64,000 nucleotides of DNA, from NCBI GenBank assembly GCA_038883795.1, contig JAVZLK010000001.1, positions 160,001-224,000 of the forward strand, written 5' to 3'. Made by a program: the position numbers and the translations under genes. Within the stretch, counting starts at the first letter, position 1; each line of letters opens with the position of its first letter. The stretch is from Candidatus Bathyarchaeia archaeon. GTDB lineage: Archaea; Thermoproteota; Bathyarchaeia; Bathyarchaeales; Bathycorpusculaceae. A model generated the notes under the pieces. The model had not been told where the DNA came from and searched no databases. It was given only the letters and a program-made list of their open reading frames with translations. Shown here piece after piece: positions 9,244-13,650 of the stretch.

Positions 9244-9642
9244 TTAACCAGTTACGTTCTTGAGCATGCACTGCACTATGTTTCCGCACATCATACACTC
9301 TTCTGGGATTTTCTCTTTTGTTTTACGCTCGCTTAAATATCCAAAATGATGAGCACACCCTTGTATTTTAGGCGGTGCTTGCAAAGTTTCCTTTTCTTTT
9401 GGAGGCTTTACCTCTTGAGTCTTAACGCCCACTTCTACCTCTGGTTTTTGACCTGTTTCAATTATTGGAATGTTTTTTCCCACGGTGATTTCTGTTAAGC
9501 AGTATGGGCACGCATCATACTTTTTGGCATGTTTTAGGTTTAAATTTTCAGCTTTAATGGGCGCTGTAAACACTTTTCCGCAAGATGGGTTTGGGCAGAT
9601 GTAGGTTTGGTTATGGGGCGCGTTATCTTTCTTTTTTGTGAT
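9244..9642 (-). CDS. Zn-finger hypothetical protein (probable ATC start)
   Basis: CPNPSC...CPYC and CAHH...ECMMC...C; open frame extends upstream of the GTG at 9573. Confidence 0.65.
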   Translation of the reverse strand: MTKKKDNAPHNQTYICPNPSCGKVFTAPIKAENLNLKHAKKYDACPYCLTEITVGKNIPIIETGQKPEVEVGVKTQEVKPPKEKETLQAPPKIQGCAHHFGYLSERKTKEKIPEECMMCGNIVQCMLKNVTG

Positions 9643-10991: not shown

Positions 10992-12188
10992 TTAAAATTC
11001 GCCTACTAGAAACAGGGCTACAAGCAAAGCAATGGTTGTGATACTGTCTGCAAGGGAACTTTCAATGGGAATAACAAAGTTGTCTGGGTCTAACCCTTTT
11101 TGAAAGGTTAAGATTGCCACAGCAAATGATATTATGATAATTGCCGACACTGCAATTAAATTGGCTATAAGTAAGAGAGTTGTGAACCCAAGAAAGGCGG
11201 AAGGCGAGAGCATATTGTTTATGGAAAGCGATAAAGCCGAAAATAAAACAAAGTAAACAACAGCAGAAGCCCAAGCTGCAAAAATCTGTTGAGAATGGTT
11301 TCGCATAGCAGTAAAAGAAGGTTTAAGCAAACCTAAAGCGAGCTTTGTTGTGGCTGTAGAACCCACAACAGAACCCACATCTCCTACAGTATCAATTAGG
11401 GCGGGGTAGACGCTATAAATCTCTTTGCGTCCTTCTACAATAATGCTTATTCTATTAAGCACAGTTCCGGTGATGTTAACGATAAAAGCCACAATTAACA
11501 GTGTAGCTAAAGATTCTTTCAAAGTTTTAATAAACTCGTTTGTCTTAAAATCTCGCAAAACAAGATACAATGTCAAAAATATATGGAAAAACATGACGAA
11601 AACAACGGCATATTTAGAAAAACCGTATAAAACAAGCACAAAAATGTAGCACATCGTTATAAATATGTCAGCAACGGTCGACATTATTGGATATTCAATA
11701 ACATCCGGGTCTAAACCCTTCTTAAATGTTGTAAAACCAACACCCATCGTAATAAAAGAAAGAATAAGCCCAAAAGTCATGGTTGAAACCACAGCCGCAA
11801 AAATATCAAAGAAAACATCGGAAGATATTCCCCAAAAAACACTCCCAAAAAACATTGAAACACAACTCATAAAAATGCTGGTCTCCAAAGTTAGAACAAT
11901 AATCGCATCAAACAAAACATAAAAACTCTTTGTATTTCCAAAAAACTTTGGATAAATTGTACCAAGATGCAATGCGGTACCCAAGCGTCCACTAAACAAT
12001 CCGCTTATCATCCCCCGCGCACTTAAGATTGTTGGATAAACAGCTATAGCCCAAGGATAAGATTGGAAAACATTAAAGCAATAAGCCACAAGAAAACCAG
12101 CGATTACACCGCCAAAATCGAAAGCATACGCTATTAAAGTCTCTTTAAAAGCTTTAAAAAACGCTTTATGATCTTCATAACTTGTCAT
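10992..12188 (-). CDS. MgtE/SLC41-type divalent cation transporter (duplicated membrane domain)
   Basis: Two GLDPD...P...S.AD repeats (GLDPDVIEYPIMSTVAD, GLDPDNFVIPIESSLAD); ~10 TM. Confidence 0.88.
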   Translation of the reverse strand: MTSYEDHKAFFKAFKETLIAYAFDFGGVIAGFLVAYCFNVFQSYPWAIAVYPTILSARGMISGLFSGRLGTALHLGTIYPKFFGNTKSFYVLFDAIIVLTLETSIFMSCVSMFFGSVFWGISSDVFFDIFAAVVSTMTFGLILSFITMGVGFTTFKKGLDPDVIEYPIMSTVADIFITMCYIFVLVLYGFSKYAVVFVMFFHIFLTLYLVLRDFKTNEFIKTLKESLATLLIVAFIVNITGTVLNRISIIVEGRKEIYSVYPALIDTVGDVGSVVGSTATTKLALGLLKPSFTAMRNHSQQIFAAWASAVVYFVLFSALSLSINNMLSPSAFLGFTTLLLIANLIAVSAIIIISFAVAILTFQKGLDPDNFVIPIESSLADSITTIALLVALFLVGEF

Positions 12189-12455
12189 CGGCTAAAAGCC
12201 TCCTTCTCTAAAACTCCACCAGCAAAATTACTGAGAAGAGACTCTACGGATAGGATTGTTTGCCTACTAGCCACATGGAGGGTTACCTCTGTTATAGGCT
12301 GCTGTGTTAGAAAATGAAGAACGTCCATGAAGAGAATGATGGCTAGCCTCATCCTGCGCACCTTCTGAGTCTTTTCGTCCTCCGTCCACTTCAATGTCCA
12401 CTCTCATGTGTTCGCTCTTAAACCCTAAACAGTGGCACTATATTGCTTAAATAGA
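12189..12455 (-). promoter_or_regulatory. TATA promoter plus ~240-nt structured leader with uORFs upstream of MgtE-like operon
   Basis: GGAAATC-TATTTAAG at ~12460-12446; nested inverted repeats 12235-12376; anti-SD 12233-12242; uORF 12407-12267. Confidence 0.6.
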
Positions 12456-12540
12456 TTTCCAACAAGGCTTATGAAAAATTCGTATTTAAAATTCATAATG
12501 GTTTTAATTTTTCAAATCCTAACCCTTCGCCATATCAAAG

Positions 12541-12738
12541 GTGAAAAGCGTGTATATAATATGGGTAAAAATTGATGAAACCTTGCCAAAAATTGAACTG
12601 AAAGGTGAATACCAAACAAAACGGGAAGCAAAAATGGCAGCAAAACAAGCTATAAGCAACATAAAAGTCGAAATCGTAAATGCCTCGCAAAAACGAGATT
12701 ATATAAAACCATTAGCGACAGCAAAGGCTATACGCTGA
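12541..12738 (+). CDS. small hypothetical protein
   Basis: 65 aa ORF filling the intergenic gap. Confidence 0.5.
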   Translation: MKSVYIIWVKIDETLPKIELKGEYQTKREAKMAAKQAISNIKVEIVNASQKRDYIKPLATAKAIR

Positions 12739-12753
12739 AACCAATTTTCCATT

Positions 12754-13143
12754 TCAAACGGAACGTTCGCATATTGAACATTTGCATGTTTTCAAAGCTG
12801 GCAAGTCTTTTTGATGTAGTTCGCAGATAATCTCCTCAGACCTTATCTTGGCACATATATCACATAATTGTTCTACAACTCCCTCTATTGAGGCATCACC
12901 TTTAGCTAATGTGTTTGCAAGCTTTGAAACTCCCTTCATCACCTCTTCGGAATGCCCTATTTCCTCTAAAAGCACTGATCCTCTTTCTCCCTTTAAATAT
13001 TGGGTTATTGCCGCAGGCGTTAACTCCATTTTTGTGGATGCGTCAATTTTGCGCATGTTATACTTTTCCATTAGTTCTTTCATTACTAGCACTCTGATTG
13101 CTGGGAGGACATGCTTAACTATGATTACGCATGGTGGTTTCAT
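12754..13143 (-). CDS. HTH transcriptional regulator with Cys-rich C-terminus (COG2522-like)
   Basis: MKPPC...LPAIR...LTPAAITQYLKGERG; CDIC, CELH, CKCSIC. Confidence 0.85.
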   Translation of the reverse strand: MKPPCVIIVKHVLPAIRVLVMKELMEKYNMRKIDASTKMELTPAAITQYLKGERGSVLLEEIGHSEEVMKGVSKLANTLAKGDASIEGVVEQLCDICAKIRSEEIICELHQKDLPALKTCKCSICERSV

Positions 13144-13186
13144 TTTTGTTTCCCTATTTTTCTTTATGCAGTAAGCTTATATATTT

Positions 13187-13216
13187 TTAACGGCGTTAAT
13201 TATTTAACACTGTTAA
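13187..13216. promoter_or_regulatory. tandem palindromic operator TTAAC-N3-GTTAA x2
   Basis: TTAACggcGTTAA (13187-13199) and TTAACactGTTAA (13204-13216) just downstream of TATA TTATATA (~13178-13184). Confidence 0.65.
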
Positions 13217-13227
13217 AAGGGCCAACT

Positions 13228-13650
13228 ATGATACAAACCAAACTAAAAATAGTCAAACTAAACAAACTAAAACAGCACGAAGAAGTCGACCCTACACACC
13301 TAAAAGAGTTAAAAAAAGAAATAGCCTCAGATAAAATTTTAAAGTTCGCCATAGCCGCCGACAAAAACACAAACATCATCCTCGATGGACAACATAGGTT
13401 CAACGCCATCAAAGAATTAGGATGCAAACGCATCCCAGTAGTCTACGTTGACTACAACTCACCAGAAATAGAAGTTCAAAGCTGGAAGGGCAATCCGCAT
13501 TTGACTAAAAAAGACGTAGTCGAAGCTGGCTTAAGCGGAAGAAAATTCCCACCAAAAACCTCAAAGCATATGGTAAGAATTGGCAGCACCCTCCACCATA
13601 TATCAGTCATCGAGAAACGTGTCGACATTCCACTAGAAAAGTTAAGGTGA
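13228..13650 (+). CDS. ParB/Srx-fold protein, SerK/SbnI-like serine kinase candidate
   Basis: LKQHEE, ILDGQHR, QSW, FPPKTSKH motifs; 7 nt upstream of cysteine synthase. Confidence 0.75.
   Translation: MIQTKLKIVKLNKLKQHEEVDPTHLKELKKEIASDKILKFAIAADKNTNIILDGQHRFNAIKELGCKRIPVVYVDYNSPEIEVQSWKGNPHLTKKDVVEAGLSGRKFPPKTSKHMVRIGSTLHHISVIEKRVDIPLEKLR

Follow-up and report, generated by a model that had tools for sequence, protein, structure and literature searches.

A candidate translated leader with two reading frames ahead of an MgtE-like transporter operon in Bathyarchaeia

Upstream of an MgtE-like transporter gene (mgtE) in a Candidatus Bathyarchaeia archaeon lies a gap of 352 nucleotides (nt), which ends at a divergent, plus-strand gene for a protein of 65 amino acids (aa), and the question raised by this locus is what the transcribed part of that gap contains. 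The locus lies within a 64,000-nt stretch of DNA (the window; GenBank assembly GCA_038883795.1, contig JAVZLK010000001.1, positions 160,001 to 224,000), the coordinates of which are used throughout, and the operon is read from the minus strand. The initial annotation had assigned the leader (12185–12455) to a Mg2+-responsive riboswitch or attenuator, in which a long nested hairpin would alternate with a pairing that blocks the Shine–Dalgarno (SD) sequence of mgtE. Comparison with homologous loci points instead to a translated leader, composed of a conserved-peptide upstream open reading frame (uORF; ORF1) and a second, coupling open reading frame (ORF2), and not to a ligand-binding RNA; we assign this reading a probability of roughly 0.6. 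The two-frame anatomy is well supported, and a regulatory role of the leader on mgtE is plausible from the sequence comparisons described below.

The homologous loci were drawn from genomes and metagenomes. A blastn search with the intergenic region matched 69 of 301 genomes of one Bathyarchaeia family, and 30 loci were fetched; the part conserved in that search was the promoter-proximal third of the region, not the SD-proximal part. In 24 of the 30 loci mgtE adjoins the divergent small gene, and in six the small gene is present without mgtE. All 24 mgtE loci share the same order after the small-gene start: a conserved block, TTGGAAA..TATTTAAG, a spacer of ~25 nt, AGGAGCG and a start codon. 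Replication used 20 loci from genome contigs (11 duplicates of earlier ones and nine new) and 52 loci from metagenome contigs, of which one contig ends before mgtE and three near-identical contigs (L096–L098) lack mgtE. Two genomes of the window's own genus (G004 and G001), with the same gene order and an alignable leader, provided the close relatives.

The conserved features of the leader are coding ones, comprising its start signals, its reading frames and one peptide. ORF1 is open over 44–74 codons and carries its motif in 24 of the 24 mgtE loci, the motif being found in none of the six loci without mgtE, and it is present in every locus examined that carries mgtE, whether among the family, the further genome or the metagenome loci. 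The family consensus is MKVELEGSL.KALLKGCLWMG..EG.QDEASQQ, with the variants M(K/R) at the start and QDEASQ(Q/H) at the conserved end. Conservation extends over the first ~37 residues only; the tail is free in both sequence and length, with a ratio of nonsynonymous to synonymous differences (pN/pS) of 0.77. Three residues (W19, M20 and E33) do not vary among 29 aligned peptides, and the invariant Trp stands ~13 residues ahead of the invariant Glu, or of the conserved acidic pair, located at the downstream start. Of 103 genomes sampled from the family, 32 matched a profile built from the peptide, as did none of 297 genomes representing 36 further families of the same class. In the three contigs from which mgtE is gone, the ORF1 start and the ORF2 ATG are both lost and a decaying ORF1 remains.

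The amino-acid sequence of ORF1 appears to be under selection, as judged from frame-specific pN/pS values and from in-frame insertions and deletions (indels). A head of ORF1 could be recognised in 50 loci, and the modal length class (111 nt) supplied 26 unique gapless sequences, for which pN/pS was 0.45 in the ORF1 frame and 0.84 and 0.99 in the other two. Mean pairwise differences at the three codon positions were 0.16, 0.161 and 0.253 for ORF1, and 0, 0.013 and 0.237 for codons 32–37, which overlap the downstream start. In the 24-sequence alignment, eight indel events were counted by eye over the stretch from the start of ORF1 to that of ORF2; seven have lengths divisible by three, the exception being locus L023 (−1 nt). 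The untranslated stretch upstream of ORF1 shows indels of 1–4 nt. The window's genus has lost 13 ORF1 codons (39 nt) in frame, such that GSL..CLWMGE is gone and ..SEGAQDEAS.. is kept; this deletion accounts for the window's own genome falling below the threshold of the ORF1 profile, and the absence of the Trp segment suggests that the leader of the window is derived, possibly weakened. The peptide matches 36 metagenome protein clusters, all unnamed or labelled 'hypothetical' and without a Pfam domain, and a search of the ESM Atlas returned unnamed clusters only, with best scores of 0.88. Modelling of ORF1 with AlphaFold2 gave no confident fold (predicted local distance difference test score 60, predicted template modelling score 0.19). 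In L023 (genome G072), the 1-nt deletion in the ORF1 head brings IELEGSLRTAMLKG into the ORF2 frame, and the resulting single frame of 80 codons ends in ATGA on mgtE; this fusion is either natural or a product of faulty assembly.

The best-conserved stretch of the leader consists of GAAGG(T/C)G, 6–7 nt, ATG or GTG, and A(A/G)GC.AGCCAAC; it lies within the QDEAS codons of ORF1, in the +1 frame. From this conserved ATG or GTG the frame is open to the mgtE start in all 24 family loci. In four of these the conserved start is in frame with MgtE, giving fused proteins of 406–433 codons, and in the remaining 20 it opens a separate ORF2 of 48–67 codons. The same frame is open in nine of nine further genome loci (five fused, four separate) and in 48 of 48 metagenome loci with mgtE (27 fused, 21 separate; of the latter, 19 were called by script and two by eye), and among all loci examined no mgtE locus had a frame that closes early after the conserved start. 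For the 15 of the 20 separate family loci with a start definable by regular expression, the other two frames over the same stretches hold one to seven stops each, compared with none in the ORF2 frame, and the probability of an open ORF2 frame under dinucleotide shuffling was 0.03–0.25 per locus. Past the first ~8 residues the ORF2 peptides cannot be aligned between genera.

In the window the ORF2 stop codon TGA (12187–12185) overlaps the mgtE ATG (12188–12186) as ATGA; among the 20 separate family loci, 12 have the same overlap, three overlap the mgtE start by 10–13 nt and five stop 2–7 nt before it. Taking all 24 separate genome loci, ATGA is found in 14; in the rest, ORF2 either stops at most 8 nt short of the mgtE start or extends past its beginning with an overlap of at most 13 nt. 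The stop/start overlap or abutment that characterizes termination–reinitiation is present in the window and in the other loci. A 69-aa frame covering much of this region (12185–12394) had been considered as a winged-helix protein and was rejected; a Pfam search relaxed to E ≤ 10 gave nothing, the only matches came from the same genus (56–59%), the frame is shifted at its end in G001, and the stretch was re-read as ORF2 from the conserved ATG at 12352.

The features of the locus are collected in Table 1. The initial annotation holds in part here: the TATA-like CTATTTAAG, ~260 nt upstream of the transporter ATG, is present (and, on comparison, conserved across genera), and the MgtE-like operon is preceded by a long leader, of ~240 nt from a transcription start that is expected near 12423–12426, ~25 nt past the TATA box, a predicted position only. 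The promoter is nearly invariant in three same-genus sequences, as is TTGGAAA..TATTTAAG across genera, and the BRE-like (B recognition element) and TATA elements probably act as a promoter, judging from the archaeal TATA consensus.

Table 1. Positions of the leader elements and adjoining genes in the window
Feature	Position	Strand	Basis or remark
MgtE-like transporter gene, 398 aa	10992–12188	−	PF01769, 74.3 bits against a cut-off of 27.6; two stretches, the two MgtE membrane repeats
PhoU + TrkA_C gene, 202 aa	10325–10933	−	PF01895 and PF02080; downstream of mgtE
PhoU + TrkA_C gene, 192 aa	9743–10321	−	PF01895 and PF02080; downstream of mgtE
Putative promoter of the mgtE-like operon: GGAAA (BRE-like), then CTATTTAAG (TATA box, 12446–12454)	12446–12460	−	Sequence and comparison
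Predicted short 5′ untranslated region, SD-like AAGAGCG inside	12408–12426	−	AGGAGCG in other genera; its GAG invariant in 24 aligned leaders
ORF1, 46 codons and stop	12267–12407	−	Open reading frame list; shortened member of a conserved-peptide uORF family
SD-like GAAGGTG, 6 nt ahead of the ORF2 ATG, inside ORF1	12359–12365	−	Sequence and 24-leader alignment
ORF2, 55 codons and stop, +1 frame relative to ORF1	12185–12352	−	Starts at the conserved ATG 12352–12350
mgtE translation initiation region, SD GGAGG at 12199–12203	12190–12203	−	Alignment of 17 loci
65-aa gene	12541–12738	+	Conserved in 30 of 30 family loci (44–85% identity), always divergent from the leader

How such a leader might act can be proposed as follows. 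Transcription would start ~25 nt after the TATA box and ribosomes would meet ORF1 first, which would take them across the second, strongly conserved SD and ATG in the +1 frame. The conserved ATG or GTG would be the main entry for MgtE synthesis, being the MgtE start codon itself in many relatives; in the window it would open ORF2, a stop-free spacer frame without conserved sequence, and ribosomes ending ORF2 at the ATGA would reinitiate on mgtE. Translation of ORF1 may set how often ribosomes begin at the downstream start, whether through occlusion or because they stall or abort on the acidic stretch, and the resulting tuning of transporter synthesis may possibly be responsive to Mg2+. The acidic end of ORF1 sits on the downstream start, which, purely by analogy with mgtQ of Salmonella considered below, suggests a Mg2+-sensitive step. 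The spacing between the invariant Trp and the acidic pair recalls TnaC and SecM and, by that comparison, would suit an interaction with the ribosomal exit tunnel. A more specific proposal, which we put forward as tentative and consider rather less than probable, is that ORF1 is an archaeal regulatory nascent peptide, the Trp head and acidic end of which would stall or drop the ribosome on the start of the Mg2+ channel in a Mg2+-dependent manner, with a relay frame inserted in some genera including that of the window.

Several observations weigh against the translated-leader reading, or limit what it can claim. The mgtE gene has a strong SD of its own and could be translated independently of ORF2. 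In a first, more divergent set of ORF1 sequences (which excluded L011–13, L023 and L027) pN/pS was 0.56 in frame against 0.63 and 0.88, and also 0.54 against 0.52. The synonymous sites of ORF1 are constrained too (pS 0.34–0.44), suggesting that part of the conservation is at the nucleotide level, in start signals or otherwise. CLWMG, the best-conserved segment of the peptide, is missing from the window's ORF1, so that its role may be lost or altered here, and the low-confidence fold predicted for ORF1 fits a leader peptide and proves nothing. The loci are related, such that the counts overstate their independence, with the ORF2 bodies of different genera nevertheless sharing no alignable sequence. 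A response to Mg2+ is possible on the strength of the transporter's Pfam name and of analogy. Finally, the leader received no reads from a raw RNA run, of which ~12% was read, which is no evidence either way; a further one of the four runs also gave none, and the two runs that yielded contigs (from related strains) were flagged as probably DNA.

The alternative with which the locus entered the analysis, a riboswitch or attenuator responsive to Mg2+ or another ligand, is now very improbable, and the model is already largely refuted by the fold, by shuffled controls, by the relatives, by Rfam and by the 24-leader alignment. The pairs of the proposed nested hairpin do exist in the window (12367–12376 with 12235–12244, nine of ten; inner helices 5/5, 7/7 and 6/6), but they are not the predicted fold: none of the 28 pairs occurs in the minimum free energy (MFE) structure, their probabilities are close to zero, and the proposed fold reaches −23.1 kcal/mol. 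The MFE of the 271-nt stretch is −74.6 kcal/mol, compared with −71.2 ± 4.9 kcal/mol for 200 dinucleotide shuffles (z = −0.71), 49 of which are at least as stable. Similarly, the pairing said to block the SD is found as a run of seven pairs (12233–12239 with 12202–12208) over part of the SD, with a mean probability of only 0.015. Of the ten outer-helix pairs, the two same-genus relatives retain six and five, and neither has an intact anti-SD run; inner helices 2–4 remain 86–100% paired there, largely because the bases do not vary (12 of 18 pairs never do). No measure of pairing or covariation in this three-sequence alignment, which has low power, exceeds that of shuffled alignments (119 of 500 reach the observed percentage paired, with one double change). 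RNAalifold, applied to the 24 leaders, each taken from its TATA box as far as the start of ORF2, gave −1.88 kcal/mol with three pairs and no compensatory changes. Whole leaders are no more stable than their shuffles (mean MFE z of +0.46 over 15 loci, −0.06 for the window), and the mgtE SD is not sequestered by upstream sequence beyond what shuffled upstream sequence achieves (mean z of 0.07 over 15 loci, 0.10 for the window), its SD-to-AUG segment being about one-third unpaired with either. A search of 11500–13300 against 4227 Rfam models at E ≤ 10 returned only a 16.3-bit chance match to a fly long non-coding RNA model, and hence no family match, the M-box (RF00380) included; at the gathering score, 20 homologous loci gave only a distant tRNA, in L024. 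The would-be hairpin region corresponds to the body of ORF2, which cannot be aligned between genera and yet keeps its reading frame.

The structural signal that does covary is small. Immediately ahead of mgtE, GGC (12198–12200) and GCC (12190–12192) form a 3-bp hairpin with a 5-nt loop, separated from the AUG by a single nucleotide. This local hairpin takes in part of the SD, accounts for such pairing as the SD-to-AUG segment has, and counts on the side of an RNA element. In 17 loci, chosen by transporter subtype and not by the hairpin, 88% of cells are paired, two of the three pairs have changed on both sides, and one of 500 shuffles reaches the score; the forms in the window and the 16 other loci are GGC/GCC, GGU/AUC and GAU/AUC, AU and UA being the replacement pairs. 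Its stability is doubtful, as it has only three pairs, especially for organisms of hot springs (the habitat label of the runs). Two hairpins picked by eye in the ORF1 head (GGCAC/GTGCC and GGAGCTT/AAGCTCT) showed no covariation and were discarded, as was an oligo-T terminator, runs of T5 or longer in ORF2 bodies numbering eight against 9.9 expected; runs of T4 or longer are mildly enriched (41 against 25.5 expected). Alternative stem-loops linking uORF translation to a terminator or to the ribosome-binding site (RBS) were not found in the family leaders. The idea of a cis-regulatory RNA survives in part: a structured switch is unsupported, but the conserved archaeal promoter and the evolutionarily maintained leader make a cis-acting role plausible, and the evidence points towards leader peptides, which the initial annotation had named as one of the means by which bacterial Mg2+ transporter genes are controlled.

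If the leader is translated, its frames may nonetheless mean something else. It is possible, though in our judgement unlikely, that the ORF1 product is a small protein at work in trans, such as an acidic subunit that assists or regulates the MgtE-like channel or the PhoU/TrkA_C proteins associated with it; ORF2 would then be no more than a relic or a means of coupling. Bacteria have small proteins that act as modulators of their Mg2+ transporters (MgtS, MgtR and MgtU), and the ORF1 peptide is conserved at the amino-acid level, always accompanies mgtE and decays where mgtE is lost. Against this, the free tail and the lack of a confident fold are poorly matched to such a protein, the window's genus has dropped the best-conserved segment and yet keeps the operon, and the conserved end of the peptide falls precisely on the start signals downstream, an arrangement that suggests a role in cis. 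An arrangement devoid of regulatory meaning, in which ORF2 is what remains of an N-terminal MgtE extension that a frameshift detached, its loss being tolerated thanks to working reinitiation, and in which the conservation of the ORF1 head reflects promoter-proximal DNA or RNA signals and not a peptide that is translated, appears improbable. It would draw on the frequency of fused forms (4/24, 5/9 and 27/48), on the constraint at synonymous sites of ORF1 and the weak frame-specific signal in the first data set, and on an ORF1 tail about as long as random run-on would give (an estimate, not computed). A neutral relic would, however, gather stops, of which there are none in 45 separate ORF2 bodies (20 + 4 + 21) that have diverged beyond alignment; the indels in ORF1 are in frame, and the third-position variation in codons 32–37 fits the ORF1 frame, falling on the second codon position of ORF2. 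Programmed +1 ribosomal frameshifting would join ORF1 to the downstream frame and endow some of the MgtE or ORF2 product with an N-terminal ORF1 peptide, and we give it very little credence. The two frames do overlap, offset by +1, at the most conserved stretch of the leader, and in L023 the loss of 1 nt makes the ORF1 head continuous with the frame of ORF2; the conserved SD at the right distance and the ATG or GTG nevertheless fit independent initiation, no known slippery or shifty motif was recognised by eye, and a search for a longer protein carrying the ORF1 peptide yielded nine candidates, none at E ≤ 0.01, which is weak evidence.

The remainder of the operon and its surroundings can be described briefly. 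Pfam names only PF01769 in the 398-aa protein, leaving its N-terminal part without a family, and the MgtE_N and CBS sensor domains of canonical bacterial MgtE were not found; the transporter of the window is thus predicted to be a two-repeat, membrane-only MgtE-like form, with a putative substrate. The two PhoU + TrkA_C proteins are probably its cytoplasmic regulatory partners. The cassette of mgtE and the two phoU genes is present or absent between close relatives, being absent in L015, L017 (window's genus), L030, L032, L036, L037 and L096–L098; in L015, L017, L030, L037 and L096–L098 the promoter block is followed by a homologue of the zinc-ribbon gene found at 9244–9573 in the window. Two genomes of one genus (L034 and L035) carry, at the same locus, different MgtE subtypes that are 48% and 76% identical to the window protein, with different ORF2 bodies and initiation regions, a difference that suggests cassette replacement. 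A 2.2-kb contig binned as Desulfonauticus sp. (L052) has a Bathyarchaeia-type leader and an MgtE 73% identical to that of the window, and is probably a binning error.

Between the divergent promoters, the block at 12467–12510 (minus strand AAATTAAAACCATTATGAATTTTAAATACGAATTTTTCATAAGC; ATGAATTTT twice in other genera) is 72–96% identical across many genera, with the flanking proteins only ~50% identical, and is also kept in the six loci without mgtE; the TATA box of the small gene on the plus strand probably lies within it, together with an operator. The 65-aa product of that gene has a sub-threshold match to DUF5633 only (E = 4.8e-4; 20.3 bits against a cut-off of 23.6). A 47-codon plus-strand frame over the block (12432–12575) is open in several genera (tblastn identity 49–74% over 22–47 residues), probably as a by-product of nucleotide conservation; in G001 a 1-nt deletion fuses it to the small gene. 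Beyond the small gene lie a 129-aa protein (12754–13143, minus strand), with a weak HTH_3 match and a Cys-rich C-terminus, and a 179-aa ParB_N-like protein (13111–13650, plus strand), which accompany the small gene in several genera and are candidate factors for binding the conserved promoter block.

Gene control by uORFs and nascent peptides is well documented in bacteria and eukaryotes, and bacterial mgtE genes are typical M-box targets. The M-box (ykoK, RF00380), like the leader described here, sits before a Mg2+ transporter gene, but the window's leader has no match to it and no conserved structure. Closer in kind are the small leader and intergenic frames of enterobacterial Mg2+ transporter operons, namely mgtL before mgtA, and mgtM/mgtP and mgtQ in mgtCBRU, for which the act of translation sets transporter expression, as it may in the archaeal leader. 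According to a study in Salmonella (PMC8092293), uORFs with acidic residues control the translation of Mg2+ transporters, and mgtQ depends on its Asp and Glu codons, which destabilize the ribosome, to promote the translation of mgtB. The conserved part of ORF1 likewise ends in an acidic stretch on the downstream start; mgtQ acts by opening an RBS-sequestering hairpin, whereas the archaeal leaders yielded no alternative stem-loops. The archaeal case differs from mgtL, mgtM, mgtP and mgtQ also in its domain, in an unrelated peptide and in the length of ORF1 (44–74 codons as opposed to 8–17), and, unlike the enterobacterial leader frames, ORF1 overlaps the downstream start out of frame and is followed by a second, relay frame.

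Eukaryotic conserved-peptide uORFs (CPuORFs) and bacterial arrest peptides such as SecM, MifM, TnaC and ErmCL resemble ORF1 in having a selected peptide in cis with one gene; unlike those with stalling, ORF1 is known here from its sequence, and its Trp segment is deleted in the window. For the ATGA junction, Huber et al. (2019, PMC6728339) report that ATGA overlaps mediate termination–reinitiation coupling in Haloferax and Escherichia coli. The window shares the stop/start overlap with such gene pairs, its upstream partner being ORF2, which is conserved only in its start and its openness. By these likenesses, the leader would combine control akin to that of bacterial leader peptides and uORFs, features like those of eukaryotic CPuORFs, and prokaryotic stop–start coupling. 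No case of archaeal uORF or nascent-peptide control appeared in the literature listings and abstracts, and we know of no archaeal conserved-peptide uORF or arrest peptide.

For riboswitch searches in uncultured archaea, the locus matters as an indication that a long archaeal leader with plausible hairpins can be entirely coding, and for annotation in that ORF1, ORF2 and the true MgtE start of the fused forms are likely to be mis-called or missed. For the Bathyarchaeia family, it offers a well-defined candidate, backed by phylogenetic comparison, in the form of a conserved peptide family of ~37 residues, encoded in cis with one transporter gene and overlapping the start of that gene out of frame, together with natural variants (fused, relayed through ORF2, shortened in the peptide, or with the operon lost) that act as a mutational series. 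Were ORF1 indeed a regulatory nascent peptide, it would be the first instance of leader-peptide or arrest-peptide control described in Archaea.

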